Assembly (NCBI GenBank): GCA_036867785.1
Contig: CP145415.1
Location: forward strand, 310,001 to 374,000
Direction of reading: 5' to 3'
Origin: Plasmodiophora brassicae
Taxonomy: Eukaryota
DNA: 64,000 nt
Within the stretch, counting starts at the first letter, position 1. Each line of letters starts with the position of its first letter. Positions 28,971 to 63,800 of this stretch are shown one piece after another. The notes under the pieces are model-generated. The model was given only the letters and a program-made list of their open reading frames with translations, had not been told where the DNA came from and did no database searches. Made by a program: the position numbers and the translations under genes.

Positions 28971-29298
28971 AGCTGCTGTCGAGGCTAGATAAACACATAT
29001 TAGAGAACTTTCGGAGCCGCTTTTCCGTTCAGTTTCCCGTTCCGCTGCCCGGCACAGCCACCGTCACAGAGTCGAAGCCCAAAAGTCTCCAAACCGAAAA
29101 GCTGAGCCAGAGGTGAAAAAGGCCGCGCTAACGGAACTACTTTTCCGTCCGCCGACAGCGTCAGAAGTGGGCACCGCCGAGCCCGTGGCGCAAGACTTCT
29201 GCTTTTTGCACTCAACACACCCATCATCACGAACCGGCACCTGGCAAGTGGCAACGCCCTCGTGGATCCACCGCCATCTGCGATTTTTTCCGCGATGT

Positions 29299-32200
29299 TG
29301 AGAAGGACAATAATGAAGTGGATGTATTACGTACGGCGTGTGCGGCGGACGTTACAGTGGCGACGTAGTCGCCGACGGTGTAACGGTTGCCAACGCCGGC
29401 GGGCACGGAGTCGCGGAGTGCGTGACGGCGTTCACGTGCTGCAGGCATGTGCTGCTGGTCGTAGTGGATACGTTGTTCGACACGCCCCCTCCAGCAGCAC
29501 ACGGCCTGGGACTTGTGTCGATGATGCCGGCCAGGAGCAGGTTCGCATGATACGAGGTGCTGAGAGCGGGCTTCGTGAGGTAGTCTGCAGCCATCTCGGC
29601 GGACGGGCACTTGTGGACCACGATCAAACTGGCCTCGACGGCCTCCCGGGTGTAGTGAAACTGCACCTCGATGTCCTTCGTGCGATCATCCATCCGACGA
29701 TAGCCAGACCAGGCCTTCGCGCCTTGATTGTCCTCGTATACGATCGTCGGACTGGAGCGTGCGAAGCCGATTTCGGTCAGGAATGACCGGATCCAGGCCA
29801 GCTGGCGGGTAACAGCACACAGCGACTTGATCTCTGCATGTGTGGACGATAAGCTAACTTTGACTGCGCCCAGGTCTTGGCGACGTGACTGCCAGTGCAC
29901 GGGGCCGCCAGCCAGCAGGATGATGTGGCCGGAGCGCGACCGTCGCGTGTCAGGGTCGGATGCCCAATCAGCGTCGGCGTATGCGATCAGACGATCTTCG
30001 GGCTGGCGTTCGTATCGGATGCCGTGCGTCATGGTGCCGGCGAGGTACTTAAGAACGCGTTGCCCCGCACGCCAATGCTGGATGCCGGGATTCGAGGAGA
30101 ATTGGGCCAGTACATTCGTTATGTACGCGATGTCGGGACGGCATCGATGGGCGAGCCATGTCAGGCAGCCAATAAGTTTGAGGTACGGCTTGGTCGCCAT
30201 TTCGTCACGGTCGAGGTCGCTTTGTGGACTCATTGTCGTTGATAGGTGAACGCCAGGCTGGTGCGGCGTGTCGACCGGATGACAATGCGACATGTTGAAG
30301 TCGCTCAACACCTTCTCGATGTACTCGGCTTGGTCAAGGGTGATGGCGCCGGTGCCAGGTTCGCGTCGGATGCGCATGCCAAGCAGGGTCGACGGTTCAC
30401 CTTGATCGGTGATCTCGGCCATCGTGGAGAGCTTCTCGAGAACGGATTCCGCGAACGGGACGTCATTGTACGCCAGCAGACCGTCGTCGGTGTGCACCGA
30501 CATGATCATGAACTTTCCATCGCGATCGTACCGGAAGACGCAGGGGTCCGCGATGATCGATTCGAATCCGAGTGATAACAGCATCTCCCGAAGCGTCTTG
30601 TACCAACGTTCGGCGCCTTGTTTCGTTCCATAAAGGGCCTTTTGCAGTTGACGAACTCGGTACGGGACGTGATGATCGGTGAAGCCATCCGGCTGACGAA
30701 TGTAAACATCATGGAGCATGTCGGCGTTCAGGTATGCGGCCACCCAGTCGACCTGGCGAAGATGCAGGCCGTGCTGCGCCGCGAGCGCTAGGATAACGAG
30801 GAACGCAGTGGCACGGGCGGTCGGCGCGAACGTATCGTCGAAGTCGATGCCGGGGCGTTGTCGGAAGCCCTGAGCACAGAGTCGGGCGGTGAACTTGCGC
30901 GCGGATGCCACCGTTGCCACTGAGCGAGGACTTCACTCGGAACACCCACTTGGCGCCAACAGCGATCTTACTTTTCGGCAGGTCGATTAGCGGGCCGAAC
31001 GTGTCCTTGGCGTCCAGTGTTGCCATCTGGGTGACGGCGGCGTCCCACCAGTGGCCAGCGAAAGGTGATGAGAGGGCATCGGCCATTGAGTTGGGTACGG
31101 GAATGTCGGTCGCTTTCAGCTTCGACAGGTCGGGTCGTGGTAGACGGGCTGGGTCGATCGGGGCGGATACCTTGGCTCGACATGCCTTGGCAGCTGCGCC
31201 GCGACATGTCGGACGGTTGGACCTGATGGCCTGATCGATCAGACGGCGCTCCTCAACCTGCTGCCAATGCCGGATCAGTCGGCGGGAGCGACGAGGAGGG
31301 CGCTGTGTCGGGAACGTTAGGGTCGGATTCTGGAACCAGGCGTCGACCGTCGAGGACCACCGTGTCGACGAACGATTGGCCGCCTCCGGCGCCTTCCACC
31401 ATTCACCAGGCGGTTGACGACGACGATTCGATCGGCGAGGGCGTGGCACGTCGATGACATTGTGGTCAACGATATCAGCAGCATCGGAATTGTCGTGGAC
31501 GTCGGGGTCGGCAGCTTCGTTGGGAGAGTCGTTGCTGGACGCCGAACCTTCGTAGTCGGGATCATCTTCAGCGTCATCATCATCTTCGTCGGTGGATACG
31601 TCATCAGGAGACGGTGAGCGCGACGGTCGGACGATCTCGGAAGGCGATGACGCAGCGGCAGGTGACGGAGGCTCGGGAGGGGATGCTGCGAGAGAGGATG
31701 CTGACGTCGATGGTAGAGGTGCCATGACGGCGTCGGAAGAGACGGGCGTCGGGACGATCGTGTCAACGTTCGGCGCAGAGCTCGACTCGGGACTGGACGG
31801 TGGCGCTGATGATGAACTAGCAGGGCTGGATCTTCCAAAGCCGAATGTGAACGAGGTCTCCAGGAACTCGGCAGTCGTGCTCTCGAACGTGTCTTCCCGG
31901 TCCACGTCGTAGAACCGCCAAGCCTTCATGCCGGGCGTGAAACCGATAAACACAGCGCGAACACGACGAGGCTCCAACTTGCTCGGCTTCTTCGTGGCTG
32001 GATGCGGTCGCATGGCATATATAGGCATCGCAACCGTAGACACGAAGGGCCGAGATGTTAGGTAGGGCGCGACGAGCAGCCTCGAACGATGTGCGACGCC
32101 CGGGAAGGACTGATCTCGGGTGGATGTTGTACAGTATCGCAGAGTAGGACAGCGACCAGGGCCACGTGGAGTCAGGCATGCGAGAGTGGCACCGGATTGA

Positions 32201-34542
32201 GCTTTCGATACCGCAGAGCGTGTGGTTGACGCTTTCAGCGCGGCCGTTCTGCTCGGGCGTGTACGGGACAGATTTGCGGTGCAGGATGCCGGACTCGTTG
32301 TAGAACAGGACGCACGCCTTGGAGTTGTACTCGCCGCCACCGTCGGTCTGGAACGTCCGGATACCACGTCCTTCCTGGTTGCGAAGACGCGCGTCATAGT
32401 GCTTGATGACGTCGAGCGCCTCCGATTTGCGACGTAGCAGATAGACGGACAGGTACCGAGAGGAATCGTCCAGCATGGTCTGGTAGTACTCAAAGCCGCC
32501 GACACCGACGACAGGCCACCGTCCGGACAGATCGCTATGGACGAGATCGCCAACACGACGCGCGCGCGACGTACTGGGAGGGAATGATGACCGTTTGCCC
32601 TTGGCGAGTAAACATGCAGCGCATGGACATCGATCTTGCGGCCTCGGGATTGGCCCGTCGAACTTCATGCCACGACAACGTTTGTGCAGGATGCGCAGGT
32701 TGCCGTAACCCAGGTGGCCGGTTCGAGCGTGCCAGACAGCTGGAGCTGCGGCGGTGACCTTAGCGACGCGGCATGAGACGCTGGATGCGATCAAGGAGCA
32801 GACTCGGGCAGAGTGAAGTGTGCCGGGCGCGGAGGTTGGAGCGGATAATGGAATCCGGTACAGGTTATCGTGTCCTCGTTGACTGACGGCCACTGGCTGA
32901 CCGACGGGCGCCGTCCAGTTGGCCCCCGAGTAGATCTTCGCGGTATCGCCGTCGAACACGATCTTGTGACCTGATCTGGTGAGCTGGCCAACTGATACTA
33001 GCGCTTGGCCAAGTCGGGGAACGTGCAGCGAATCGATACTCGTCGCCTGGACATCCATGCCGAATGACGTCACGCCTCGACCGGAAGTGGTTGTACGCGA
33101 CAGATCGGCTAGCTCAACTTCCGGTCCGGTGCCTTGGCGATAGCAGCTGAGATGTCGGCGCAGGGGCGTCATCGTCGTGGAACACGCTGAGTCCAGTAGG
33201 CCTACTGAGTTCGCGTACACGTCGATGGCGTGGCGTGCCGACAAAGCACGCATCGGCTCGGGCGCCGGATCGATCGGATGAGCGCCAGACGTTGGATACT
33301 CGTTGGACGTTGGTGAGGATGTATTGCTTTTCGCGTTGCTGTCGCGGTACCAGATGTGTCGTTGCAGCGTGCATTCGCCGTTAGTGTGCTTGGATCCGGG
33401 ATGGAAGACGCAGGACTCGTTGCGTCGTGGTCCACGGGGACGCGTCGATGTGGCGCAACTGGAGCGGTTGGCCGTTTGGAACGCGTCGTGTCGGTCCCGC
33501 ACGTCTTGGACCCTGATCTCCTCGCTTGTCAACGACCCGACGACCTCGGAGACACTGGGCAGCGTGTCCAGAGCACGATTGTGCAGGCCAGCGACGACGG
33601 CGTCGAGATCGGATGATGCGTTGGCCAAGATGAGGACGGCGACCAATGCGTCGGTGAGGGACAGCATCTCGGTCGGTACCGTCGACCGGACGCGATGAGC
33701 CGCTGCTTGAACTCGGGCGGCGTACGTGGCGACCGACTCGCCGGGCATGTGCTGGACCGTGACGAGGTCGCGGACGGCGCGCACGACCGATGCCAGCGAC
33801 GACGGGCTGTACGCCTGGAACAGCACGCGCCAGCACTTGGCAGCCGAGCCTGCCTGAAACAAAGACAATGCGGACGCGATCTTGTGGTCCAGCATGTGGA
33901 CGAGTAGAATCTCGCGCGCGGCTGCCTCGAGAGCTGGGTCGTGTGCCGTACCGGTTGTCGCAGTCGGCGAGCCATCTTCGTTGATCCCGATGACGTCCGC
34001 GTACCCACGATTGCGAAACCAGAGTGCAGCTGTCTGAACCCAGGACGTGAACGAGTCGGGAGTACCGTCGAACTTGGGCATGGGCAGTCGGCCTGCGTCG
34101 CTTCGGCTGTGCGCCTCGGCGATGATCGGCATGGCCGGGGTCGATGGACAGCTGGTCGGACGCGCCAGCTGCTGCTGCAGGACACGGAGACGGTCGATCT
34201 TCTCCTGCCTGGCGATCGTTGCCTCCGCTTCGGCAATTCGGGTGTCGATCTCCTCGAGCGACAGATGACGCAGCGGGTCGTCATCCGTGTTAGGCGTCGC
34301 CTGGCGCTCGGCCATGGCGAGTAGGGGCTCAGCGCCTGCGCCTATACGACTGTTAATCTGAGAAGGACAATAATGAAGTGGATGTATTACGTACGGCGTG
34401 TGCGGCGGACGTTACAGTGGCGACGTAGTCGCCGACGGTGTAACGGTTGCCAACGCCGGCGGGCACGGAGTCGCGGAGTGCGTGACGGCGTTCACGTGCT
34501 GCAGGCATGTGCTGCTGGTCGTAGTGGATACGTTGTTCGACA
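29299..34542 (-). mobile_element. Ty1/Copia element copy A
   Basis: 184-bp LTRs 29299-29482 and 34359-34542; TSD GATGT; PPT GGAGGGGG; gag-PR-IN-RT-RH order. Confidence 0.96.
29352..34315 (-). pseudogene. Copia A polyprotein, two 4-bp frameshifting insertions
   Basis: Colinear with the 1546-aa ORF of copy B but with extra TATA (~32018) and GCGC (~30898). Confidence 0.9.
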
Positions 34543-34543
34543 G

Positions 34544-35706
34544 ATGTCTGCGCCACCAGATCCTAGCATTGTCGAGGCGACGACCACTGTCCCCAATGAC
34601 TTGTTCAACGTTCCAGGCGCTTATAGAAACAAGGACTGCCAGCCGCTGGCACAGGGCGGCGCCCCGACGCACAAGCGGTTTGCGGCATGGCACGATGTGC
34701 TCCTGCTGCGCGCAGCGAACGACATCAAGCCTTGGGAGGCGAAGTACGGGAAGGTGATGGCCGTGTGGGACCTCATTGCCGCTCGGCTGGCCAACACCAT
34801 CGGCTTTGGCCTGAAGAAAGACGGGGCTTCGCTGAAAAAGCGTTTCGAACTCATAGTCGATCAGTTCAGGAAGGACGACCAGGAGTCCCTCAAGAAGTCC
34901 GGCGTCGAGGAAGAATTCACCGAGAAACAGGAACTCTTGACCGATATCGTCACCAGAATGGACGATCATCTGACGATGACCGCGGCTGCGAAGGCTGAGT
35001 TGACCGGCAAGAAGGAAGCCGTCGAAGCGTCGGGGGCCATCATGCGCGAACTCGCGATGCGAGAAATGGGCTACGAGAGTCTCGACGACGAAAATAATGG
35101 CGACACAGTGCTGAACGGAGAGGTTTCCGGCGAGAATCTCACGAATGCCAGTGTGCGTCTTGCTCTGAATTTCAAATTTCACTAACATTTGCTAACATAT
35201 GCTGCCAGAGTGATAACCCCATGGAGATTGCCTCGCCCTCTCCCCACCAGCCGAATAGGATGAAAAGGACAGGCGATTTCCGGCGCAAGATCAGCAAGCG
35301 CCAGAAGCTGGATGCCTTCTCTGACGCAATCGCGGCGGGCGTTAGTCAAAGCAACCAAGCACAGGCGGATAAGTTGCAGATCCTGCAGCAGCGGCTGGCG
35401 TTCGACATGGACAATGCAAGGCGCCTGCTGGAGTTCGAAGAGCGACAATGGCAGCGCGACGAGGAGCGCGAGGAGCGGCAACGGCAGCGCGACGAGGAGC
35501 GCGAAGAGCGACAACGGCTCCGGGATGAACAGCGAGAAGAGCGTCAGCACCAAAACATGCTGCGCGACGAGGAGCGCGAGGAGCGGCAACGGCAGCGCGA
35601 CGAGGAGCGCGAAGAGCGACAACGGCTCCGGGATGAACAGCGAGACGAGCGTCAGCAGCAAAACATGCTGGCGATCGTTGCCCTCTTGACGAAGAACACT
35701 CAATAA
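34544..35706 (+). CDS. Harbinger accessory Myb/SANT-like DNA-binding protein with coiled-coil tail, one intron (~35153-35208)
   Basis: RFAAWHDVLLLR...KPW...WDLIAARL...SLKKRF...SGVEEEFTEKQELL; RDEEREERQRQ repeats. Confidence 0.8.
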
Positions 35707-35713
35707 ATTCTGT

Positions 35714-36844
35714 TTATTCACATCCGAGGTATTCCTCCAGTGAGGGCGGAAGCATGTCAAAATACATGCTGATTTGGTTGCCACGTGGTTGCAGTGTTGT
35801 ATGGCAATTCGTCAACAAGGTGGCGACCAAGAACGAAATCCCAACCGGAGCCTTTCGGACCTTCTGCTTCTTGTCAAAGTCCATATACGACCACAACGTC
35901 TTTAGCCGTCCGAACGCCCATTCGACTGCCTCGCGAACCGAGCTCATTGCGGCATTAAAGTGCTTCTGAAGAGATCCAGGAGCCGGAGCGTTGAAAGGGC
36001 AACACATAAGGTCGTTACAGCCATATGCAGGGTCTCCGTAGATAAGGCGTCCTCCGAACACGTCAGGGCGGCTCCTCAGCAAAGGCAGAATATTGCTCAT
36101 CGACAGCAGCGTTGTGTCATGTCGCCGACCTTCGACGGGGCCGTACATACTGACTATCAGTCCATCAGGCGTTGTGATGCCCTGCCAACTAAAACAATGC
36201 GTCCTCGTGTGCCCACTGAACACGGACCTCTGAAGGTTTTCGCCGGAGGGAGCGTCATCTCTAGGGCTTGGACGGCACAAGTGCTGCTTGGTGCCATCAA
36301 TGAACGCCCAACAGTTCGGAAGTGGCGCTCCCTTCTCCTGGATTGCTTGACAGTATCTAGCAATTCGAGCTTCGACCACTGGCATGTTGAAGTAGATCAA
36401 GTGCTTGTGGTTCCGATACACAAGCTTTGCGGTGTGCCAGAAAAGTCGCGATATCGCAGGCTCCGAGCGCCCGAACTCATTCGCGATAGTGTACAGCCAT
36501 GCTGGCTCCGCCAACCGCCGGCACAGCAGGGCAATTGCCTCAAGACCGGAGATCTTATCGCCTGCCTTCGTCACGACCACATCCGGGATCTTGAGAGATC
36601 GCCGGAGTCGTCGTAACTCGGATATCGTGAAACGATATCGTTTCCTGGCAGCCGCATCTGGTAGAAGCGGATCGAAGTGGTTGCTGTGGTCGATTTCTGC
36701 GCCTGCAGGTCGTACCGCGAACCATCGGTTGTCGAGCATGACCGACATGATCTCCAGGAAACGTCGCCTATTCCAGCCAACGCCGACAAGCACGAGCAGT
36801 AGAACGCGGATCGCCTCTTCCTCCGTCAAACGCGGTACGTTCAT
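35714..36844 (-). CDS. Harbinger/HARBI1-like DDE transposase
   Basis: WAFIDGTK, GRRHD, IYGDPAYG, REAVEWAFGRLK; intact ORF. Confidence 0.92.
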   Translation of the reverse strand: MNVPRLTEEEAIRVLLLVLVGVGWNRRRFLEIMSVMLDNRWFAVRPAGAEIDHSNHFDPLLPDAAARKRYRFTISELRRLRRSLKIPDVVVTKAGDKISGLEAIALLCRRLAEPAWLYTIANEFGRSEPAISRLFWHTAKLVYRNHKHLIYFNMPVVEARIARYCQAIQEKGAPLPNCWAFIDGTKQHLCRPSPRDDAPSGENLQRSVFSGHTRTHCFSWQGITTPDGLIVSMYGPVEGRRHDTTLLSMSNILPLLRSRPDVFGGRLIYGDPAYGCNDLMCCPFNAPAPGSLQKHFNAAMSSVREAVEWAFGRLKTLWSYMDFDKKQKVRKAPVGISFLVATLLTNCHTTLQPRGNQISMYFDMLPPSLEEYLGCE

Positions 36845-37040
36845 ATTGCTATGAACGGAACGGAAAACGCTTTCGAAAGGCAGCACCTGTCGACCTTTCC
36901 GTTCCGTGACTGGCTGCGGCTGCGACTGTAGCTGTGCCGGGCAGCGGAACGGGAAACTGAACGGAAAAGTGGCTCCGAAAGTTCTCTATTGCCTAGCCGG
37001 AATACGACACAGTGATCACTGTAGTCACGTACGAAGGTCG

Positions 37041-38671
37041 ATGGCTGCAGGGACGACGCGCGAATCGGTGTCGATGATCGACGAGGACTTGACTGCGGTT
37101 ACAGGGCGACTAGACGCGCTGCAGCCGGTGGTCGAGAGCGGTGACGAAGACCACCCGGTCTACGAATACCCGGATGAACAGTCGGGGCTGCCAGACGGCA
37201 ACAACGCTGTCGACGCAGCCCGCATCGCCAGCATATATAGCCAAGGTGGACAGGGCGTCCAAGGCCCCTGAACTCAGGCTGTGTGACGGTAAAAGCACCA
37301 ACAGGTGGTTTGATGCTCAGAAACGACACACCGAGTACCTTAACAGTTTGGGCGTACTCCGGAGTCGTGCACCGCTTCGGGAAATGATCGACGAGGATCT
37401 GCTACCAATTCTCCTATGCAGCGCGGGTGAACTTCACTGGACCTCGGAAGACATTCCCGATGACGTTATCGAGCGGATGCTACGTGGCTGGCAGATGGCC
37501 CAGGCGCCTGCTCAGAGCGGATCATACTGGACCTACTTCGACTCTCTGCGCATGAACAAGAGCATCCAGGATGCCAGGGCGCGGGTGCTCGACTATGGTC
37601 GACAGCTGGTGAAGATCGTCAAGGACCGTGACCTTGGGGAGATCTTCTCGGGAGAGAAGGGCCCCAAGAAGGTCGACATCCTCATGCAGGGAATCTACCC
37701 CCTGAGCTCAAGACGCGCATGAAGGAGCTGCTGGAAACGACTGAGAAGCACCTCAAGTCGGATCCGGACGCGTTCTTCAAGCGTCTTGAGGATAAAACTA
37801 TTGCTTTCGACGAGTGCGGCGTGCACTGAGCATGTCCCGTCTCGATGGTGCATCGCGACAGACTGCGATCGCGTCACGCAGCGCCCTCACCATCCCCAAG
37901 AAGAGGAAGGAGAGGGATCAGCCCATGCCGGCGGAGGAACAAGCCCTCAAGAAGCTGAAGCGTGGCAAAGAGGAAGGCGAAGTGCCCCAATGCGGGTTAT
38001 GCAAGGGGGAACACCGTCTCAGACAGTGTCCCAAAGCCTCAGACGACCAGAAGGAGCGCATCGTCAAGAAGCTGCGAGAGGCGCGCGAAGCGATCAAGGA
38101 GGCGCGCATCAACAGCAGCAGCAATGCCATTAAACCACAGGGTAGCGGCTACATGCGAGTGTCGAAAGTAGACATCCGATTAGAAAGTAGCGCTGAGCGA
38201 CATGGCGACAACCAGATCGTAGTTGGCGTAGGAAAAACAGACGGCAAGTGGCCGGGCATCCTTGACAGTGCAGCTGAGCGCACGCTGATGCCGATGTCGA
38301 TGGCCATGCAAATTGCCGAATTGGACCCAAACACAGACATGAGAGAACTGGAAGCACCAGTGACACTGATTCTAGCCGACAGTGAGCAAGCAATTGGGAA
38401 AGCCACCCACGAAACCAAAGTGGACTTGTCGCTGCAGACACGTGCTGGGAAGCTGCAGATTCCTAAGCACACCTGTCTTGAATGGGATGTGCCAGCAGAA
38501 CATATCTACTTGGGTCTCGATTTGCTTGAGGACCTTGGAATAGATCCGGCCTCAGCTCTGGAGCATCTGATCGCAAATTAGCAAGCAACCAGCGACAACG
38601 AATCGCAAACTGATGATCAGATGTACGAAGATGTTGAAATAGGAGACATCATTCCAGAGGACATACGTGAA
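37041..38671 (+). pseudogene. Gypsy element F gag-protease fragment (frameshifted)
   Basis: CGLCKGEHRLRQC knuckle; ILDSAAE protease; YLGLDLLEDLGID; truncated by element E. Confidence 0.75.
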
Positions 38672-49524: not shown

Positions 49525-51948
49525 TGTCACGACTGAGTCGTGTTGGCGACTCAGCCGGCACCAAATTGGGCTCCTTCGTAAGCGCACTAGGTACAATAAA
49601 CGTCCACGGCGCGGACCGACCTCAGTCGGTCAATCCGTGTGGTTGACTCATCGTGTTCGGTCGTCACATTTTGACCGACTGACCTTCTGTCGTCGTCTTG
49701 TCTCGACTCGTATCGTATTGTGCCGTATCGTATCGTATTGTGCCGTATCGTACCGTGCCGTACCGTTTCTATCGTTGGTATTGTATTGCATTCATGGCAG
49801 GAGGCGATGGGTCGATTCCGTCATTGGCGGACGACGTCCCATCGTCCGCGAATCCGGATGTTGCGGGTGCGTCGGATTCTGCTCTCGGTCCCCTGTCGCA
49901 TCTGCACTTCGCGCGGGGTGTTCTGCCACTGGCGAATCATCTCCCTGCACGACCGCTCACCCCGCCTTCGCTCACTAGTACCGCTGCCGATTGGCCCGAC
50001 GACTCTCTGTCCTCTTCGGACCCTCACTCCCCGCCAGCCTTATCGTCCATACACGTTTCTGCCGCCTCGCGGTCTCTGCAGGACCCCGGCGGCACGCCTC
50101 GGCATGACCGTGTCTCCTCGACGTCGCAGCATATTGGCGCTTCGTCCGTTGGGGCTCGGGTGCCGGCGCCACGGGTGTCTCCGGGCCCACCCTTAACGTC
50201 TATTGTTGTCCAGTCACAAGACATTCCGCGTTTTTCGGGAAGCGATGGTCTGTCGACGACGCGTTGGTTGACTGCGTTCTCTCGGATCACCCAGACGCCG
50301 TTAACGTCTACAAGTCCTCTATTCAGCGATGTGCAATGTGTCTTAACGACAGCCTTGCAAGGTCAGGCCCTTGAGACTTACCTCGACTTGCCTGCGGACG
50401 CGTCTATGGCGGACGTAGCGTCCGTCCTGCTCCATGTCTTCCCGGGACCTTCGTTCAAGCAGATTGAAGCGAAGTTTGACAACCTGAAGCAGACTGCAGG
50501 TGTCGCTCACCACGCACTGGCATTCCAACGCTTGTACAAGCACCTTCAACGACTTGACCCATTGTACAGACTCAATCCGGCCCGCTTGGCGGAAAAGTTC
50601 CGCCTCTCGTTGAACCCTGCGCTCTCCGAAGCGCTGTTCTTCTACAACTTCAGAGACTACGACAAAGTTGTCGAGATGGCGGTTCATCTTGAGTCGAAAT
50701 ACCCAATCGCCGCCATCAACGCTGGCGGTGATGCAAGGGCACAACCCCTGGCTTGCCACTATTGTCGCGAAGTTGGACATTTTATTGCGTCCTGCCCGAA
50801 GATGCCACCGTGCCCGCACTGTCATAAGGTTGGCCACCGCTCATCGCTGTGTCCCGAGCGGTCCGGCAACCCTCTCCACGTCACTGATCTGTTCCTTATG
50901 ACGTCTCCCTCAATACCGCATCTATTGGTATCGGTACGCCTCGTTATCGGCTCACGCCGTGTCAACACTATCGCCCTGTTAGACTGTGGTGCGACTTCCA
51001 ACTTCATCGACTGGTCGTTCTGTCGTCACCATGAAATACCGGTTCGCTCTAAACGCGTGCCATTCCTGTTCGCGTCATCGACGGGCGACACCTGTCTCCA
51101 GTAACTCAGGAAACCGTCCCGCTACGTGCTACAGTCGACGGATGTTTCGACAGCGATGTCGTCCTGAACATGATGCACTCGCCTCAACACCCTGTCATTC
51201 TTGGGCTGCCTTGGTTGGCGGATACAAACCCAGATATTGATTGGCGTCAGCGCCGCCTACAGCGCCGCGGAGATACCCTCGTGGGGATCCGTACAGGAGA
51301 CGTCCATGAGTCTGGGTCCTTCGTCTCTTCGGCGGGACCATTTGCAACAGTAAAGCGCGACGATAGTCTCTCAGCTGGGGTCTCACCTCCTGCACGAAGC
51401 GTTCCTGCGCCTGCGTGTGCCATCCCTTCAGCTGAATCACTCGAAACGTTGCCGCTTACATCCGTGTTTGTCGACGGCAAGCTGGCTTCCGTAGCTAATG
51501 ACGACCACCCGATGTGCCACATTGCCACTGCTGCCGTCGACGACAGGCCGAGTCCTTCCGCTTTCGATTATGGCTCCGAGTCCACGCCCCTTATGTCCTC
51601 CTTCCGGAACTGGGGCCCCCTTCGGCGAAGGGTGAAACGGTCTCTCCCGCCGCCCCCGCCGCCTCCCTCCAATGGTGGCTTCCGAGACGGCCACAGCCTC
51701 AACCTTCTGATGTTCGCAACCTTTGTCGCCCTGACCTGGATCCTAGTTGGGTGGCCGTATTTTCCAATAGCACAGCTGTGTACGAGCGCCTTTGCGGAGC
51801 CCCCGCCCTTGAATGCGCCCGCCGAGTCCTTATTTGCACCTTTTGCTACGTTAGAGGATGACCAGGCCTCATCAACCTCGATCGCGTTTCTCAACCACGA
51901 TCTCATGTTCCTGGACGCCGCCGTACGTGCGTTTACCCACAAGCTACA
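49525..51948 (+). mobile_element. Gypsy element D, 5' fragment (144-bp LTR 49525-49668, in-frame gag-PR from 49794)
   Basis: Two CCHC knuckles, [19 protein letters not shown]; frameshift near 51060; ends at the Copia B junction. Confidence 0.85.
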
Positions 51949-54900
51949 TAATGAAGACGATAACGAAGTGGATGTATTACGTACGGCGTGTGCGGCGGAC
52001 GTTACAGTGGCGACGTAGTCGCCGACGGTGTAACGGTTGCCAACGCCGGCGGGCACGGAGCCGCGGAGTGCGTGACGGCGTTCACGTGCTGCAGGCATGT
52101 GCTGCTGGTCGTAGTGGATACGTTGTTCGACACGCCCCCTCCAGCAGCACACGGCCTGGGACTTGTGTCGATGATGCCGGCCAGGAGCAGGTTCGCATGA
52201 TACGAGGTGCTGAGAGCGGGCTTCGTGAGGTAGTCTGCAGCCATCTCGGCGGACGGGCACTTGTGGACCACGATCAAACTGGCCTCGACGGCCTCCCGGG
52301 TGTAGTGAAACTACACCTCGATGTCCTTCGTGCGATCATCCATCCGACGATAGCCAGACCAGGCCTTCGCGCCTTGATTGTCCTCGTATACGATCGTCGG
52401 ACTGGAGCGTGCGAAGCCGATTTCGGTCAGGAATGTCCGGATCCAGGCCAGCTGGCGGGTAACAGCACACAGCGACTTGATCTCTGCATGTGTGGACGAT
52501 AAGCTAACTTTGACTGCGCCCAGGTCTTGGCGACGTGACTGCCAGTGCACGGGGCCGCCAGCCAGCAGGATGATGTGGCCGGAGCGCGACCGTCGCGTGT
52601 CAGGGTCGGATGCCCAATCAGCGTCGGCGTATGCGATCAGACGATCTTCGGGCTGGGGTTCGTATCGGATGCCGTGCGTCATGGTGCCGGCGATGTACTT
52701 AAGAACGCGTTGCCCCGCACGCCAATGCTGGATGCCGGGATTCGAGGAGAATTGGGCCAGTACATTCGTTATGTACGCGATGTCGGGACGGCATCGATGG
52801 GCGAGCCATGTCAGGCAGCCAATAAGTTTGAGGTACGGCTTGGTCGCCATTTCGTCGCGGTCGAGGTCGCTTTGTGGACTCATTGCCGTTGATAGGTGAA
52901 CGCCAGGCTGATGCGGCGTGTCGACCGGATGACAATGCGACATGTTGAAGTCGCTCAACACCTTCTCGATGTACTCGGCTTGGTCAAGGGTGATGGCGCC
53001 GGTGCCAGGTTCGCGTCGGATGCGCATGCCAAGCAGGGTCGACGGTTCACCTTGATCCGTGATCTCGGCCATCGTGGAGATCTTCTCGAGAACGGATTCC
53101 GCGAACGGGACGTCATTGTACGCCAGCAGACCGTCGTCGGTGTGCACCGACATGATCATGAACTTTCCATCGCGATCGTACCGGAAGACGCAGGGGTCCG
53201 CGATGATCGATTCGAATCCGAGTGATAACAGCATCTCCCGAAGCGTCTTGTACCAACGTTCGGCGCCTTGTTTCGTTCCATAAAGGGCCTTTTGCAGTTG
53301 ACGAACTCGGTACGGGACGTGATGATCGGTGAAGCCATCCGGCTGACGAATGTAAACATCATGGAGCATGTCGGCGTTCAGGTATGCGGCCACCCAGTCG
53401 ACCTGGCGAAGATGCAGGCCGTGCTGCGCCGCGAGCGCTAGGATAACGAGGAACGCAGTGGCACGGGCGGTCGGCGCGAACGTATCGTCGAAGTCGATGC
53501 CGGGGCGTTGTCGGAAGCCCTGAGCACAGAGTCGGGCGGTGAACTTGCGGATGCCACCGTTGCCACTGAGCGAGGACTTCACTCGGAACACCCACTTGGC
53601 GCCAACAGCGATCTTACTTTTCGGCAGGTCGATTAGCGGGCCGAACGTGTCCTTGGCGTCCAGTGTTGCCATCTGGGTGACGGCGGCGTCCCACCAGTGG
53701 CCAGCGAAAGGTGATGAGAGGGCATCGGCCATTGAGTTGGGTACGGGAATGTCGGTCGCTTTCAGCTTCGACAGGTCGGGTCGTGGTAGACGGGCTGGGT
53801 CGATCGGGGCGGATACCTTGGCTCGACATGCCTTGGCAGCGGCGCCGCGACATGTCGGACGGTTGGACCTGATGGCCTGATCGATCAGACGGCGCTCCTC
53901 AACCTGCTGCCAATGCCGGATCAGTCGGCGGGAGCGACGAGGAGGGCGCTGTGTCGGGAACGTTAGGGTCGGATTCTGGAACCAGGCGTCGACAGTCGAG
54001 GACCACCGTGTCGACGAACGATTGGCCGCCTCCGGCGCCTTCCACCATTCACCAGGCGGTTGACGACGACGATTCGATCGGCGAGGGCGTGGCACGTCGA
54101 TGACATTGTGGTCAACGATATCAGCAGCATCGGAATTGTCGTGGACGTCGGGGTCGGCAGCTTCGTTGGGAGAGTCGTTGCTGGACGCCGAACCTTCGTA
54201 GTCGGGATCATCTTCAGCGTCATCATCATCTTCGTCGGTGGATACGTCATCAGGAGACGGTGAGCGCGACGGTCGGACGATCTCGGAAGGCGATGACGCA
54301 GCGGCAGGTGACGGAGGCTCGGGAGGGGATGCTGCGAGAGAGGATGCTGACGTCGATGGTAGAGGTGCCATGACGGCGTCGGAAGAGACGGGCGTCGGGA
54401 CGATCGTGTCAACGTTCGGCGCAGAGCTCGACTCGGGACTGGACGGTGGCGCTGATGATGAACTAGCAGGGCTGGATCTTCCAAAGCCGAATGTGAACGA
54501 GGTCTCCAGGAACTCGGCAGTCGTGCTCTCGAACGTGTCTTCCCGGTCCACGTCGTAGAACCGCCAAGCCTTCATGCCGGGCGTGAAACCGATAAACACA
54601 GCGCGAACACGACGAGGCTCCAACTTGCTCGGCTTCTTCGTGGCTGGATGCGGTCGCATGGCATAGGCATCGCAACCGTAGACACGAAGGGCCGAGATGT
54701 TAGGTAGGGCGCGACGAGCAGCCTCGAACGATGTGCGACGCCCGGGAAGGACTGATCTCGGGTGGATGTTGTACAGTATCGCAGAGTAGGACAGCGACCA
54801 GGGCCACGTGGAGTCAGGCATGCGAGAGTGGCACCGGATTGAGCTTTCGATACCGCAGAGCGTGTGGTTGACGCTTTCAGCGCGGCCGTTCTGCTCGGGC

Positions 54901-57178
54901 GTGTACGGGACAGATTTGCGGTGCAGGATGCCGGACTCGTTGTAGAACAGGACGCACGCCTTGGAGTTGTACTCGCCGCCACCGTCAGTCTGGAACGTCC
55001 GGATACCACGTCCTTCCTGGTTGCGAAGACGCGCGTCATAGTGCTTGATGACGTCGAGCGCCTCCGATTTGCGACGTAGCAGATAGACGGACAGGTACCG
55101 AGAGGAATCGTCCAGCATGGTCTGGTAGTACTCAAAGCCGCCGACACCGACGACAGGCCACCGTCCGGACAGATCGCTATGGACGAGATCGCCAACACGA
55201 CGCGCGCGCGACGTACTGGGAGGGAATGATGACCGTTTGCCCTTGGCGAGTAAACATGCAGCGCATGGACATCGATCTTGCGGCCTCGGGATTGGCCCGT
55301 CGAACTTCATGCCACGACAACGTTTGTGCAGGATGCGCAGGTTGCCGTAACCCAGGTGGCCGGTTCGAGCGTGCCAGACAGCTGGAGCTGCGGCGGTGAC
55401 CTTAGCGACGCGGCATGAGACGCTGGATGCGATCAAGGAGCAGACTCGGGCAGAGTGAAGTGTGCCGGGCGCGGAGGTTGGAGCGGATAATGGAATCCGG
55501 TACAGGTTATCGTGTCCTCGTTGACTGACGGCCACTGGCTGACCGACGGGCGCCGTCCAGTTGGCCCCCGAGTAGATCTTCGCGGTATCGCCGTCGAACA
55601 CGATCTTGTGACCTGATCTGGTGAGCTGGCCAACTGATACTAGCGCTTGGCCAAGTCGGGGAACGTGCAGCGAATCGATACTCGTCGCCTGGACATCCAT
55701 GCCGAATGACGTCACGCCTCGACTGGTCGTACGCGACAGATCGGCTAGCTCAACTTCCGGTCCGGTGCCTTGGCGATAGCAGCTGAGATGTCGGCGCAGG
55801 GGCGTCATCGTCGTGGAACACGCTGAGTCCAGTAGGCCTACTGAGTTCGCGTACACGTCGATGGCGTGGCGTGCCGACAAAGCACGCATCGGCTCGGGCG
55901 CCGGATCGATCGGATGAGCGCCAGACGTTGGATACTCGTTGGACGTTGGTGAGGATGTATTGCTTTTCGCGTTGCTGTCGCGGTACCAGATGTGTCGTTG
56001 CAGCGTGCATTCGCCGTTAGTGTGCTTGGATCCGGGATGGAAGACGCAGGACTCGTTGCGTCGTGGTCCACGGGGACGCGTCGATGTGGCGCAACTGGAG
56101 CGGTTGGCCGTTTGGAACGCGTCGTGTCGGTCCCGCACGTCTTGGACCCTGATCTCCTCGCTTGTCAACGACCCGACGACCTCGGAGACACTGGGCAGCG
56201 TGTCCAGAGCACGATTGTGCAGGCCAGCGACGACGGCGTCGAGATCGGATGATGCGTTGGCCAAGATGAGGACGGCGACCAATGCGTCGGTGAGGGACAG
56301 CATCTCGGTCGGTACCGTCGACCGGACGCGATGAGCCGCTGCTTGAACTCGGGCGGCGTACGTGGCGACCGACTCGCCGGGCATGTGCTGGACCGTGACG
56401 AGGTCGCGGACGGCGCGCACGACCGATGCCAGCGACGACGGGCTGTACGCCTGGAACAGCACGCCCCAGCACTTGGCAGCCAAGCCTGCCTGAAACAAAG
56501 ACAACGCGGACGCGATCTTGTGGTCCAGCATGTGGACGAGTAGAATCTCGCGCGCGGCTGCCTCGAGAGCTGGGTCGTGTGCCGTACCGGTTGTCGCAGT
56601 CGGCGAGCCATCTTCGTTGATCCCGATGACGTCCGCGTACCCACGATTGCGAAACCAGAGTGCAGCTGTCTGAACCCAGGACGTGAACGAGTCGGGAGTA
56701 CCGTCGAACTTGGGCATGGGCAGTCGCCCTGCGTCGCTTCGGCTGTGCGCCTCGGCGATGATCGGCATGGCCGGGGTCGATGGACAGCTGGTCGGACGCG
56801 CCAGCTGCTGCTGCAGGACACGGAGACGGTCGATCTTTTCCTGCCTGGCGATCGTTGCCTCCGCTTCGGCAATTCGGGTGTCGATCTCCTCGAGCGACAG
56901 ATGACGCAGCGGGTCGTCATCCGTGTTAGGCGTCGCCTGGCGCTCGGCCATGGCGAGTAGAGGCTCAGCGCCTGCGCCTATACGACTGTTAATCTGAGAA
57001 AGACAATAATGGAGTGGATGTATTACGTACGGCGTGTGCGGCGGACGTTACAGTGGCGACGTAGTCGCCGACGGTGTAACGGTTGCCAACGCCGGCGGGC
57101 ACGGAGTCGCGGAGTGCGTGACGGCGTTCACGTGCTGCAGGCATGTGCTGCTGGTCGTAGTGGATACGTTGTTCGACA
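51949..57178 (-). mobile_element. Ty1/Copia element copy B
   Basis: 5' LTR 56995-57178; 3' LTR to 52132 with its outer ~16 bp replaced; no TSD. Confidence 0.93.
52311..56951 (-). CDS. Copia B polyprotein (Gag-PR-IN-RT-RH), premature stop in distal RNase H
   Basis: 1546 aa; LLDSACS, WHARTGH..CAAC, HSDL/TDGGGEY/NGRAE, FTARLCAQG, HTDD, YADADW; CAG>TAG at 52311-52313 versus copy A. Confidence 0.9.
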   Translation of the reverse strand: MAERQATPNTDDDPLRHLSLEEIDTRIAEAEATIARQEKIDRLRVLQQQLARPTSCPSTPAMPIIAEAHSRSDAGRLPMPKFDGTPDSFTSWVQTAALWFRNRGYADVIGINEDGSPTATTGTAHDPALEAAAREILLVHMLDHKIASALSLFQAGLAAKCWGVLFQAYSPSSLASVVRAVRDLVTVQHMPGESVATYAARVQAAAHRVRSTVPTEMLSLTDALVAVLILANASSDLDAVVAGLHNRALDTLPSVSEVVGSLTSEEIRVQDVRDRHDAFQTANRSSCATSTRPRGPRRNESCVFHPGSKHTNGECTLQRHIWYRDSNAKSNTSSPTSNEYPTSGAHPIDPAPEPMRALSARHAIDVYANSVGLLDSACSTTMTPLRRHLSCYRQGTGPEVELADLSRTTSRGVTSFGMDVQATSIDSLHVPRLGQALVSVGQLTRSGHKIVFDGDTAKIYSGANWTAPVGQPVAVSQRGHDNLYRIPLSAPTSAPGTLHSARVCSLIASSVSCRVAKVTAAAPAVWHARTGHLGYGNLRILHKRCRGMKFDGPIPRPQDRCPCAACLLAKGKRSSFPPSTSRARRVGDLVHSDLSGRWPVVGVGGFEYYQTMLDDSSRYLSVYLLRRKSEALDVIKHYDARLRNQEGRGIRTFQTDGGGEYNSKACVLFYNESGILHRKSVPYTPEQNGRAESVNHTLCGIESSIRCHSRMPDSTWPWSLSYSAILYNIHPRSVLPGRRTSFEAARRALPNISALRVYGCDAYAMRPHPATKKPSKLEPRRVRAVFIGFTPGMKAWRFYDVDREDTFESTTAEFLETSFTFGFGRSSPASSSSAPPSSPESSSAPNVDTIVPTPVSSDAVMAPLPSTSASSLAASPPEPPSPAAASSPSEIVRPSRSPSPDDVSTDEDDDDAEDDPDYEGSASSNDSPNEAADPDVHDNSDAADIVDHNVIDVPRPRRSNRRRQPPGEWWKAPEAANRSSTRWSSTVDAWFQNPTLTFPTQRPPRRSRRLIRHWQQVEERRLIDQAIRSNRPTCRGAAAKACRAKVSAPIDPARLPRPDLSKLKATDIPVPNSMADALSSPFAGHWWDAAVTQMATLDAKDTFGPLIDLPKSKIAVGAKWVFRVKSSLSGNGGIRKFTARLCAQGFRQRPGIDFDDTFAPTARATAFLVILALAAQHGLHLRQVDWVAAYLNADMLHDVYIRQPDGFTDHHVPYRVRQLQKALYGTKQGAERWYKTLREMLLSLGFESIIADPCVFRYDRDGKFMIMSVHTDDGLLAYNDVPFAESVLEKISTMAEITDQGEPSTLLGMRIRREPGTGAITLDQAEYIEKVLSDFNMSHCHPVDTPHQPGVHLSTAMSPQSDLDRDEMATKPYLKLIGCLTWLAHRCRPDIAYITNVLAQFSSNPGIQHWRAGQRVLKYIAGTMTHGIRYEPQPEDRLIAYADADWASDPDTRRSRSGHIILLAGGPVHWQSRRQDLGAVKVSLSSTHAEIKSLCAVTRQLAWIRTFLTEIGFARSSPTIVYEDNQGAKAWSGYRRMDDRTKDIEV

Positions 57179-58329
57179 GCGCCCCAGGCGAGGACTCAAC
57201 CGCCGCAAAATGCGGGGCGGCCGATTCGAAACGCGATAGGGCGTGTGGACGGTGACGGACTGACGGTGGACGCTTGGGGTATGGGCGGTGGGCAAAAACG
57301 GACGAGAGATGATCTCGATGACGTAGCTGAGGCAAGGGGGTACGATGGGCGTTTGTGATAATATTGTTTGCGAAAACAGGTGTTTACTAAGGGACGATTG
57401 TATCGGACGTGGGACTGAATGAAGCGAGCCTACAGTCACGTTGGATGTGTGGATGCGCCGCGCTGGTTCCGGCGTATGTCGTCAAACGGGTTCGTGTTTG
57501 GCGGGTTGAAGTCGCGCGCTTCATCATGCCGGTCTTTGTTACGTCTGGCATATGAGTACCATTCGGACGTGCGGAAGCAGTTGAAACGGTGCAAGTTCGC
57601 ATGAAGCGATTCGTTGGGATGGAAGTGGCGCCCTTGGAGGAATGTGGTCGTGGCATCTGAATGCGTCTGCAGAATTTCGGCCTGCAGGCGGTGCGTGTGC
57701 TTCCAGGTGTTTAGTATCAAGACGGCTTCGTTAACGCCACAGACCTGTTTGTACTGCTCGAAAGCAGCACGAAGTGCTCGCTCTGCATGTCACGACTGGC
57801 ATCCGTTTATAGCTGTTGGCAAGCGGCGTCCTAATTGGGCGCCGCTGCCAGACCGAATAAATGTCCGTGACGGTGGTCGACGTCAGTCGGCTAATGTCCT
57901 GTTAGCCTCAACATCGTGTTGTGTCTAACACTGCACGCTGCCGGAGTTGCTTGATGGCGCTGGTTGACTTTCCCATAGCCTTTCCAATCTTTTGACCGCC
58001 TTGTGCCAGTATCACCGAGTGGAGTTCGTTGATGTCTTCAGGTTCTTTGGTGGCAGCGTTGTCAGCACTCATCGTGAACCTGGACGGTCTAGGAGGTGTG
58101 ACTTTCAAAGTGACAACAAAGTGCGTTTCTGGCTGGCTGTTGTAGTCCAATGGCGGTTCGGGAAACGTGGTAATGGGACCCCTTCGATGTTATCTGCTCG
58201 GACGTTCAGCTAGGAAGGCGAAGCTCCGGTCGTCAACCCCCCCCCCCCCTCCCCCGCACCGACTCGCATGTGGGGACGTATTTCGGCAAACAAATGGGGT
58301 AATAGAGCGCCTCATCGGGCACCTGATGG

Positions 58330-58770: not shown

Positions 58771-60815
58771 TGTGCCCAGATATTATACATTGACGATACA
58801 GAACGATGTACCCTGTCTGGGCAGTCCAGTAGTGTGACGTCCTTCAAGCTTCGAGACGTACTCGTTGAGAAGCTCGCTCCTAGCCCCTCGGTCTATGACA
58901 AGCAGCCTGTCGTCTGACTGCTGATTGCCTGTCTGGTGACTATTGTCTGTCTGGTTTATTTCGGGCCGTCTGGCCTCACGCCCTCCACTGCGTCTCCGGA
59001 GTCCGTGACGGTCTCCGGAAGTCCGCGGTCTATTCTGGGACACACACGACTGGTCTGGCGGGACAGCTGACTGTGCTGGTCCGGAACGGATCGGCAATGT
59101 TGGCGGGCCGTGTCGGGACAGGGGTTATGACCGTGAACAACATCATAGGTGCTGCTATGCTGTACGTATGATACACTTCCCTCCTCAAGATAGCGTCCCT
59201 CTTCGTGTTGTGATCTTGGAGCTGGCATGAATGGCATCTTGTCATACGGAATAAACTTGAGTTGCACTATTCCTGTTACAGGTGAACATTTGGAGAAAAA
59301 TTATGTGGGAATCATTCTTCCGTAGGTTATGTTTTCCCCAGTCCGTCACACTCTTTTTTCGCGCGGCGGACCTCGACGTCGTCGTGATGTCGAGCGGCCC
59401 TGAGACCATGACCCTTGTCAAGGTACTGCGAGGCTTGCCTTCTGGCTCACTCGCTAAACCCACTAAAAACCATCTTGTTCAGTGACCATAACTGTGCAAT
59501 GTCTAGTTGCGACGTCGCCGCTTGGTCGAGGCATCTGCCTGACCTGGCGTCTTTCGCTTGACTGGTTTCCTCTGGGACCTGGTTTTCTGCAATGATTGCG
59601 GCAGCATTTTCTGCAATTCTTCCGCCAATGCATGACTCCTATGTCCATTGATGAAAACTTGCACCATTTTGGGCTGATCTTCAATGATGACGCTTGCCGG
59701 TTCCCATGTGGATTCTTCATCGCTGAAGCCCCGCCATCGTATGCGTAATTCCATGGTTTGCTCACGATTCTTACGTGCATCCATTATTTCTTGGATTTCC
59801 CATGTAGCATTGTCATAGGCTATTTGTTCTTTGAGTTCTTCTGTAACGTTGAGCTTCTGATCGCAATAGAATTGGAGTCTACTTCCGTGTACAATGTGAT
59901 GATCCCCATTCACTAGATCTTCGACCTCGAAGATGTAGTTGGAGTGAACCTCAGTAACACGGTATGGCCCTCGCCATTTCAGAAATAGTTTCTCTCCAGC
60001 TCTGAGCGTTTCTGCTCGCAGAACGAAATCCCCTTGATAGACATTTGGTGGCTTCCGATTCCCCGACGCTTTCTCTCGCCGCTGCGCTCTCTGGCGCTCG
60101 CTGAGATCTGCTGCTTCTTTGTGCATCTCATTCAGTCCGGCTGTAAGCTCGTCGGTGAGAGTTTGGATTGTCTCAGACGTGAGTTGGGCAACACTGACTT
60201 GTGTTTCCCGTGTGGGATTCATGCAGACTGCTTCTAATGGGTCATCTGGTTCTACCCCACTGTGAACCTGCACAGGCGCTCGCCCTCCCAGTCTTTGCTG
60301 TGGCCGATGATTGAGCACATGCTCTACCACCTTGATTAGCCATGGCCATTCTTCCTTCTGCCATCGGAGGTCGGAACAAATGGCACGGAATAGTGCCAGC
60401 ACATGCTTGTTGACTACTTCAACCGTTCCGTTGGGATAGTGTATGTAAGCGGTTGTCCAATGTTGCTTAACATTGCAAAGCTTACTGTACTCCCTAGTAA
60501 CCTCAGACATGAAATACGATGCCTGGTCGGAGACTATGATTTCTGGTGTTCCTGACTTGGATCTCCATTCCATCAGTGCCTGTACTGTTGTCAGACTATC
60601 TGGCACAACAGTTGGCACGAGGTGTACAAGTCCCGAGAGGTCATCTCTCAGTACGAGAATCCATTTGAAATCATGTCCTGCCTCTTCCTTTGACGGCATC
60701 ATGTACAGATAATCCATATGGAGTACCTGTCCACGCCTGGTTGCATGACATGCATGGCCTAATGGCCTGGGACACACCTCACCACCTCTCGTGGGTCTGC
60801 AGTGCAGGCAGCCTC
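58771..60815 (-). mobile_element. Gypsy element G, 3' fragment: integrase + chromodomain (59503-60815), candidate PPT and 3' LTR (~58771-59175)
   Basis: CLHC, LHMDYLYM, VSDQASYF, NGTVEVVN, WRGPY, IRWRGFSDEESTWEP; GAGGAGGGAAG followed by TG; LTR limits tentative. Confidence 0.75.
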
Positions 60816-63800
60816 TGTCGAACAACGTATCCACTACGACCAGCAGCACATGCCTGCAGCACGTGAACGCCGTCACGCACTCCGCGACTCCGTGCCCGCC
60901 GGCGTTGGCAACCGTTACACCGTCGGCGACTACGTCGCCACTGTAACGTCCGCCGCACACGCCGTACGTAATACATCCACTTCATTATTGTCCTTCTCAG
61001 ATTAACAGTCGTATAGGCGCAGGCGCTGAGCCCCTACTCGCCATGGCCGAGCGCCAGGCGACGCCTAACACGGATGACGACCCGCTGCGTCATCTGTCGC
61101 TCGAGGAGATCGACACCCGAATTGCCGAAGCGGAGGCAACGATCGCCAGGCAGGAGAAGATCGACCGTCTCCGTGTCCTGCAGCAGCAGCTGGCGCGTCC
61201 GACCAGCTGTCCATCGACCCCGGCCATGCCGATCATCGCCGAGGCGCACAGCCGAAGCGACGCAGGCCGACTGCCCATGCCCAAGTTCGACGGTACTCCC
61301 GACTCGTTCACGTCCTGGGTTCAGACAGCTGCACTCTGGTTTCGCAATCGTGGGTACGCGGACGTCATCGGGATCAACGAAGATGGCTCGCCGACTGCGA
61401 CAACCGGTACGGCACACGACCCAGCTCTCGAGGCAGCCGCGCGCGAGATTCTACTCGTCCACATGCTGGACCACAAGATCGCGTCCGCATTGTCTTTGTT
61501 TCAGGCAGGCTCGGCTGCCAAGTGCTGGCGCGTGCTGTTCCAGGCGTACAGCCCGTCGTCGCTGGCATCGGTCGTGCGCGCCGTCCGCGACCTCGTCACG
61601 GTCCAGCACATGCCCGGCGAGTCGGTCGCCACGTACGCCGCCCGAGTTCAAGCAGCGGCTCATCGCGTCCGGTCGACGGTACCGACCGAGATGCTGTCCC
61701 TCACCGACGCATTGGTCGCCGTCCTCATCTTGGCCAACGCATCATCCGATCTCGACGCCGTCGTCGCTGGCCTGCACAATCGTGCTCTGGACACGCTGCC
61801 CAGTGTCTCCGAGGTCGTCGGGTCGTTGACAAGCGAGGAGATCAGGGTCCAAGACGTGCGGGACCGACACGACGCGTTCCAAACGGCCAACCGCTCCAGT
61901 TGCGCCACATCGACGCGTCCCCGTGGACCACGACGCAACGAGTCCTGCGTCTTCCATCCCGGATCCAAGCACACTAACGGCGAATGCACGCTGCAACGAC
62001 ACATCTGGTACCGCGACAGCAACGCGAAAAGCAATACATCCTCACCAACGTCCAACGAGTATCCAACGTCTGGCGCTCATCCGATCGATCCGGCGCCCGA
62101 GCCGATGCGTGCTTTGTCGGCACGCCACGCCATCGACGTGTACGCGAACTCAGTAGGCCTACTGGACTCAGCGTGTTCCACGACGATGACGCCCCTGCGC
62201 CGACATCTCAGCTGCTATCGCCAAGGCACCGGACCGGAAGTTGAGCTAGCCGATCTGTCGCGTACGACCACTTCCGGTCGAGGCGTGACGTCATTCGGCA
62301 TGGATGTCCAGGCGACGAGTATCGATTCGCTGCACGTTCCCCGACTTGGCCAAGCGCTAGTATCAGTTGGCCAGCTCACCAGATCAGGTCACAAGATCGT
62401 GTTCGACGGCGATACCGCGAAGATCTACTCGGGGGCCAACTGGACGGCGCCCGTCGGTCAGCCAGTGGCCGTCAGTCAACGAGGACACGATAACCTGTAC
62501 CGGATTCCATTATCCGCTCCAACCTCCGCGCCCGGCACACTTCACTCTGCCCGAGTCTGCTCCTTGATCGCATCCAGCGTCTCATGCCGCGTCGCTAAGG
62601 TCACCGCCGCAGCTCCAGCTGTCTGGCACGCTCGAACCGGCCACCTGGGTTACGGCAACCTGCGCATCCTGCACAAACGTTGTCGTGGCATGAAGTTCGA
62701 CGGGCCAATCCCGAGGCCGCAAGATCGATGTCCATGCGCTGCATGTTTACTCGCCAAGGGCAAACGGTCATCATTCCCTCCCAGTACGTCGCGCGCGCGT
62801 CGTGTTGGCGATCTCGTCCATAGCGATCTGTCCGGACGGTGGCCTGTCGTCGGTGTCGGCGGCTTTGAGTACTACCAGACCATGCTGGACGATTCCTCTC
62901 GGTACCTGTCCGTCTATCTGCTACGTCGCAAATCGGAGGCGCTCGACGTCATCAAGCACTATGACGCGCGTCTTCGCAACCAGGAAGGACGTGGTATCCG
63001 GACGTTCCAGACCGACGGTGGCGGCGAGTACAACTCCAAGGCGTGCGTCCTGTTCTACAACGAGTCCGGCATCCTGCACCGCAAATCTGTCCCGTACACG
63101 CCCGAGCAGAACGGCCGCGCTGAAAGCGTCAACCACACGCTCTGCGGTATCGAAAGCTCAATCCGGTGCCACTCTCGCATGCCTGACTCCACGTGGCCCT
63201 GGTCGCTGTCCTACTCTGCGATACTGTACAACATCCACCCGAGATCAGTCCTTCCCGGGCGTCGCACATCGTTCGAGGCTGCTCGTCGCGCCCTACCTAA
63301 CATCTCGGCCCTTCGTGTCTACGGTTGCGATGCCTATATATGCCATGCGACCGCATCCAGCCACGAAGAAGCCGAGCAAGTTGGAGCCTCGTCGTGTTCG
63401 CGCTGTGTTTATCGGTTTCACGCCCGGCATGAAGGCTTGGCGGTTCTACGACGTGGACCGGGAAGACACGTTCGAGAGCACGACTGCCGAGTTCCTGGAG
63501 ACCTCGTTCACATTCGGCTTTGGAAGATCCAGCCCTGCTAGTTCATCATCAGCGCCACCGTCCAGTCCCGAGTCGAGCTCTGCGCCGAACGTTGACACGA
63601 TCGTCCCGACGCCCGTCTCTTCCGACGCCGTCATGGCACCTCTACCATCGACGTCAGCATCCTCTCTCGCAGCATCCCCTCCCGAGCCTCCGTCACCTGC
63701 CGCTGCGTCATCGCCTTCCGAGATCGTCCGACCGTCGCGCTCACCGTCTCCTGATGACGTATCCACCGACGAAGATGATGATGACGCTGAAGATGATCCC

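Follow-up and report, generated by a model that had tools for sequence, protein, structure and literature searches.

The 64-kb window (the whole stretch of DNA that was analysed) was compared with itself, and a single element with about 99% identity among its copies was revealed in three places: copy A (29299-34542, minus strand), copy B (51954-57178, minus strand) and copy C, which begins at 60816 on the plus strand and is truncated at 64000, where the window ends. An intact gag-pol open reading frame of 1546 aa (P0001; 52311..56951, minus strand), with gag, protease barrel, integrase and RVT_2, is carried by copy B. The domain scan of P0001 located Retrotran_gag_2 at residues 154-271, Pol_BBD at 373-447, gag_pre-integrs at 509-570, rve at 588-685, SH3 at 750-820 and RVT_2 at 1106-1347 (E 4e-49). 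By its gag–protease–integrase–RT order with an RVT_2-type RT, the element belongs to Ty1/copia (Pseudoviridae), and the hallmarks of this group are present, namely TG...CA LTR ends, a 5-bp duplication (copy A) and, just ahead of the 3' LTR, a polypurine tract. A database protein 99% identical to that of the element bears the label of a hypothetical protein from Plasmodiophora brassicae; a relative from a second family (P0006, 63% identical) carries the same species label. The public sequencing runs in which the element occurs have labels of soil metagenomes, plant metagenomes and coded organisms, and it is by such labels that the host is taken to be this clubroot protist.

Copy A is enclosed by LTRs of 184 nt (TGTCGAAC...TTCTCA), of which the 5' LTR (34359..34542, minus strand) and the 3' LTR (29299..29482, minus strand) are identical at 184/184 positions. 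The polypurine tract GGAGGGGGCG (29483..29492, minus strand) abuts the 3' LTR, and a perfect 5-bp target-site duplication, ACATC, is present on the 5' side (34543..34547, minus strand) and on the 3' side (29294..29298, minus strand), where it adjoins TG and CA exactly. The 5' LTR of copy B (56995..57178, minus strand) differs from that of copy A at 2/184 positions; its polypurine tract, again GGAGGGGGCG (52133..52142, minus strand), abuts a 3' LTR (51954..52132, minus strand) whose last ~15 nt are diverged or cut short. Around the ends of copy B (regions 57179-57188 and 51940-52000, minus strand), the flanks are without target-site duplication, and the present ends of this copy may be due to recombination or deletion instead of simple insertion. 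Copy C starts with a 184-nt TG...CA 5' LTR (60816..60999, plus strand) that shows no difference from its counterpart in copy A, followed by a first ORF of 832 aa (gag-PR-IN; 61043..63541, plus strand), the ATG of which lies 43 nt past the LTR. This copy sits inside a chromovirus integrase/chromodomain ORF of the opposite strand (60400-60815; ORF 59503-60960, minus strand), and the chromovirus ORF continues into the Copia LTR by chance.

Only copy B has the intact ORF. Relative to it, copies A and C contain 4-nt length changes which shift the frame, with a second such change in copy A. One 4-nt and one 6-nt length difference from copy B are shared by A and C (63336 region in C, matching place in A), and the 4-nt change closes the first ORF of both at 832 aa, past the integrase. 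Judged by these shared differences, A and C are sister copies of a frame-shifted lineage, yet one that inserted recently (identical LTRs in A); either the lineage was mobilised in trans, it would follow, or the frameshift is a programmed one. From the identical LTRs and the one intact copy, the family looks recently active.

The remainder of the window holds chromovirus copies and a PIF/Harbinger-type transposase. One chromovirus (14212-19885, minus strand), a Gypsy element with a chromodomain integrase, has very short LTRs of 96 nt (TGTCAGG...GTGACA) and the 5-bp duplication ATTAC on either side. Its 5' LTR is followed by GTTTGACCGAC, without TGG and with a 9-nt complement to GTCGGTCAA within the LTR, GTCGGTCAA being one arm of a GACCGAC/GTCGGTC hairpin; by its sequence, the arrangement looks like self-priming of the Tf1 type. 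A tandem array with units of 33-42 nt (35418-35699) adjoins the PIF/Harbinger DDE_Tnp_4 ORF (35714-36886, minus strand).

A pattern search of the 64-kb window with the 12-mer GATTAACAGTCG gave three exact matches, at 61000-61011 (plus strand, copy C), 34347-34358 (minus strand, copy A) and 56983-56994 (minus strand, copy B), which are the three places named in the original prediction. A further match with 1 mismatch (37173-37184, plus strand) has no adjoining LTR and was taken as chance. None of 100 dinucleotide shuffles reached 4 matches (mean 0.17); the three exact matches amount to one observation, given that the copies in which they occur are 99% identical, so that their count reflects the copies and the conservation of the site says nothing on selection. 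All three begin at the first base after the 184-nt TG...CA 5' LTR, as had been predicted, and the boundary is set by copy A: since the ACATC duplication adjoins its termini and both of its identical LTRs end at the same base, the LTR end is fixed at ...TCTCA, and the first base past the terminal CA is accordingly the G of GATTAACAGTCG. The sequence upstream of a PBS is copied into both LTRs, and hence the 3' base of the primer must pair at this first G. On the strength of its position, GATTAACAGTCG is probably the minus-strand PBS of a Ty1/copia family that is young and has Plasmodiophora brassicae as its probable host, and the identical LTRs of copy A show that an element with such a PBS completed reverse transcription recently.

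The reverse complement of the site, CGACTGTTAATC, reads as three stem bases (CGA), a 7-base loop (CTGTTAA, the motif to which attention had originally been drawn) and two bases of the returning stem (TC). The loop has T at position 33, the anticodon GTT and A at position 37; bases 31/39 (A/T) and 30/40 (G/C) are mutually pairable, as an anticodon stem demands, and the last base of the motif corresponds to tRNA position 40. According to the available portion of PMC1181622, it is the 3'-OH of this nucleotide, inside the anticodon stem-loop, that hemiviruses extend into cDNA. Compared with a generic tRNA-Asn, as distinct from that of the host, the site thus abuts the LTR, complements the anticodon stem-loop and ends at nucleotide 40. 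The potential for pairing is short, at only 12 nt or perhaps 14 (in copy C, up to 61013, if the stem of the host tRNA permits). Neither of the two other PBS types, a tRNA 3'-end site or a self-priming complement, is present. Initiator tRNA-Met does not fit as primer, the loop complement being CTGTTAA (GTT) and not the CAT loop that was read from 16 metagenomic Copia loci with half-tRNAiMet sites.

The specificity of the motif was assessed with tRNAs from IMG/VR, where a pattern composed of the site complement and a T-loop motif pulled 120 loci. All ARAGORN tRNAs with the 13-mer on these loci were tRNA-Asn(gtt) (111/111). In the panel of 562 ARAGORN tRNAs from the loci, 8- to 11-mers anchored at the 3' end of the primer were found in 116/117 tRNA-Asn and the 12-mer in 111/117 (6/117 without it), whereas 8- to 12-mers were found in 0/445 non-Asn tRNAs; the Asn rows had been chosen with a motif-derived pattern and are mostly of phage or bacterial type, so a fair comparison is confined to the 445 non-Asn tRNAs. 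What the panel establishes is the wide occurrence of such an arm in nature; it does not extend to the host.

Stem positions 29, 31 and 39 of tRNA-Asn differ among organisms, a point against a full match to the host tRNA. In the 64-kb window, neither ARAGORN nor Rfam at gathering scores detected a tRNA gene (0 each). Logan contigs were aligned to a eukaryote-like tRNA-Asn gene of an IMG/VR contig (L106:2341-2454, minimum likeness 80), and runs X13, X2 and X19 gave none; run X5 gave 3 contigs of low depth, which have AT-rich flanks and differ at two bases in the 5' strand of the stem and were taken as those of another organism in that run. The literature yielded no usable Plasmodiophora tRNA or tRNA-fragment resource. 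The host tRNA-Asn would be expected to match all 12 positions, because the loop is near-universal, bases 30 and 40 can pair, and A31 and T39 complement each other.

Primer types in other Copia elements were surveyed by a metagenome scan that matched generic RT motifs and returned 80 Copia loci with 27-39% identity. A half-tRNAiMet site (CA followed by GGTTATG[AG]GC[CT]) was found at 16/80 loci, and these sites share the register of GATTAACAGTCG, in which two bases of stem precede the seven of the loop and further stem follows; the tRNAiMet 3'-end site TGGTATCAGAGC was found at 15/80, and for the other 49/80 no PBS was called, the contigs being too short or the site of neither type. ARAGORN found no tRNAs on the 80 loci. 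TTAACAGTC in three of them (L122, L132 and L136) was considered as a second Asn-type PBS and rejected on account of its location in the 3' untranslated part, ahead of the polypurine tract. These three are related plant-like Copia contigs with a common conserved non-coding block, ...GTTCAACTTAACAGTCTC... (L122 4474, L132 4955, L136 2555), which is located ~90-100 nt upstream of the polypurine tract and is not a PBS.

The nearest proteins (P0003-P0005, P0007, P0009 and P0010), with 43-59% RT identity, are known as proteins only. Close relatives were found neither in viral contigs (searched by protein, then by alignment A1) nor in prokaryote genome contigs, and the relatives with 43-59% identity were absent from the 80 metagenomic Copia loci. 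A quick tree was computed by maximum likelihood from 98 RT rows and split at the midpoint; in it, the six nearest proteins and the element formed a fully supported clade. The element's side of the midpoint comprised 19 rows (SH-aLRT 85), and all 5/5 with a readable PBS were of the half-tRNAiMet type, with 0 of the tRNAiMet 3'-end type. The tree is weakly consistent with a change of tRNA within a half-tRNA-priming lineage, and lends the same slight support to the proposed switch of the primer from Met. It is quite possible, if short of probable, that a rhizarian Copia lineage with half-tRNAiMet-primed ancestors came to use the 5' part of tRNA-Asn(GUU) as primer instead.

Priming from the anticodon arm of tRNA-Asn is considered likely. 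In this mechanism, GATTAACAGTCG would pair with nucleotides 29-40 of cytoplasmic tRNA-Asn(GUU), which comprise the whole seven-base loop CUGUUAA together with the three bases before it, on the 5' side of the anticodon stem, and the two after it, on the 3' side. A 3'-truncated tRNA-Asn would supply the 3'-OH, at nucleotide 40, from which synthesis copies U5 outward, in the way that tRNAiMet serves the hemiviruses copia and Ty5. A cut tRNA would thus be the primer, with the agent of the cutting likewise an inference. Position 37 of tRNA-Asn bears a bulky modification that may weaken the pairing, and the same holds for tRNAiMet. The original prediction of a half-tRNA-Asn primer stands in so far as the PBS of a Ty1/copia element, the GTT arm, the end at position 40 and the register shared with tRNAiMet are concerned; the match to the host tRNA is a prediction.

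Where the 3'-OH comes from could be answered differently. An intact tRNA-Asn might anneal by its anticodon arm and then be cut at position 40 in the particle, by the RNase H of the element or another nuclease; this is a sub-variant of priming by tRNA-Asn, with the same tRNA and another source of the 3'-OH, and the data favour neither source. Self-priming Tf1 elements depend on RNase H to cut their primer. In P0001, the RVT_2 match covers residues 1106-1347 and the protein runs on to residue 1546; no RNase H family in P0001 was reported by the domain scan. Cutting in the particle finds no support in the sequence, and for copia it is a pre-cut tRNA fragment that is found in particles, which counts against it, so that this variant is regarded as unlikely. 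The likeness to tRNA-Asn could also be due to chance or be partial, the real primer being another small RNA or host tRNA region with a 3' end that pairs with GATTAACAG.... The shortness of the pairing, just 12 nt, and the non-host origin of the tRNAs on which the Asn match rests speak for this. It is nonetheless quite improbable, since 9/12 bases (the 7-base loop and the 30/40 pair) fit 116/117 tRNA-Asn and 0/445 others, bases 31 and 39 complement each other, and the match stops exactly at the nucleotide 40 described for hemiviruses in the accessible text of PMC1181622.

Two further explanations dispense with the anticodon arm altogether. The 5' end of the element's own transcript might fold onto the site, in the style of Tf1 or of plant TAR elements. 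Self-priming is predicted in 12% of plant LTR elements (PMC6317226, available text), and the chromovirus of the same window looks self-primed; here, however, the longest LTR complement to the first 20 nt past the LTR is 6 nt (TACGAC), a length equalled or beaten in 188/500 shuffles, and such folding is held to be very improbable. That the LTR boundary is misplaced and a canonical tRNA 3'-end site lies elsewhere is scarcely credible. No point in its favour was found, and it is opposed by the ACATC duplication, which abuts TG and CA, and by the two LTRs of copy A, which end at the same base. The 43-nt stretch that separates the LTR from the gag ATG contains no TGG, the site for the CCA end of a tRNA, so that priming from a tRNA 3' end is excluded there. 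Another LTR boundary exposing a TGG PBS had been named in advance as one observation that would overturn the proposal; the boundary holds, and no TGG precedes the gag ATG.

With priming from the anticodon arm of tRNA-Asn as the preferred reading, this probable case in a plasmodiophorid, a eukaryotic lineage far from the others, joins a short list of LTR elements that are primed by a cut tRNA and not by a tRNA 3' end. It predicts that the host tRNA-Asn reads CGACTGTTAATC at positions 29-40 and that a tRNA-Asn fragment ending at nucleotide 40 exists. Annotation pipelines which scan tRNA 3' ends alone would give the family no PBS. As for the genomic setting, TE-rich blocks of the host genome vary between isolates, according to the part of 10.64898/2026.10.14.759018 that was available. 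The general picture of retrotransposon priming is unchanged. If the move to tRNA-Asn(GUU) took place, it would be the first such case outside fungi and further evidence that about a dozen base changes suffice to redirect anticodon-arm priming freely from one tRNA to another.

All of the Arg, Ile, Met and Asn primer tRNAs decode A-starting codons, and an identical bulky base occupies position 37 in each. One hint to be drawn is that cutting or annealing may favour the class of tRNAs for A-starting codons; a strict rule is not proposed, because the published Tyr and Asp cases argue against it. In yeast Ty4, tRNA-Asn also serves as primer, but with the 3' CCA end of the whole tRNA and not with the anticodon arm.

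Among known systems, the hemivirus-type Copia elements (copia, Ty5, Osser, 1731) come closest: in the accessible parts of PMC1181622 and PMC10886601, they are described with the Ty1/copia order, a PBS that abuts the LTR and a PBS complement that is the anticodon stem-loop ending at nucleotide 40, all as in the element here. They differ in the anticodon, which is CAT (iMet) in the hemiviruses and GTT (Asn) in the present element, the latter being known from sequence alone. Use of a half-tRNA other than Met had originally been called unusual, which proved overstated, as Arg, Ile, Tyr and Asp tRNAs have been described in print as anticodon-arm primers (PMC4139406, PMC6317226 and PMC10886601, as far as their available text goes) and tRNA-Asn-GTT is reported there as primer in fungal Helenus elements (PMC10886601). 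The hosts of the Puccinia Copia elements and the Helenus TRIMs are rust fungi, whereas the element here is rhizarian, and the primer tRNAs of Puccinia Copia and Helenus are described as intron-bearing; for the Asn case of Helenus, the main text, in the portion available, leaves anticodon loop versus 3' end unstated, so that its register is not comparable (all PMC10886601). In Candida albicans Tca2 (gamma LTR) and whio, the PBS likewise shows homology to the interior of a tRNA other than Met, but the tRNA is a different one, tRNA-Arg(UCU), and the host is a yeast (PMC4139406, accessible part). Plant Bianca belongs, like the element here, to Ty1/copia, and its PBS also complements a non-Met half-tRNA; it differs by its plant hosts and by the use of tRNA-Ile with an edited anticodon base, and about 2% of plant elements are given as using 1/2tRNA-Met or 1/2tRNA-Ile, the latter in Bianca (PMC6317226, available text). 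Pairing of pre-tRNA with the PBS in Drosophila, as presented in the accessible part of PMC13537249, has no bearing on the choice of primer here. A literature search returned no report of a tRNA-Asn anticodon-arm PBS in a rhizarian or in Plasmodiophora. By analogy with these systems, the mechanism is most likely that of the hemiviruses, already known for other tRNAs, and the element of the window most likely a further example of it.
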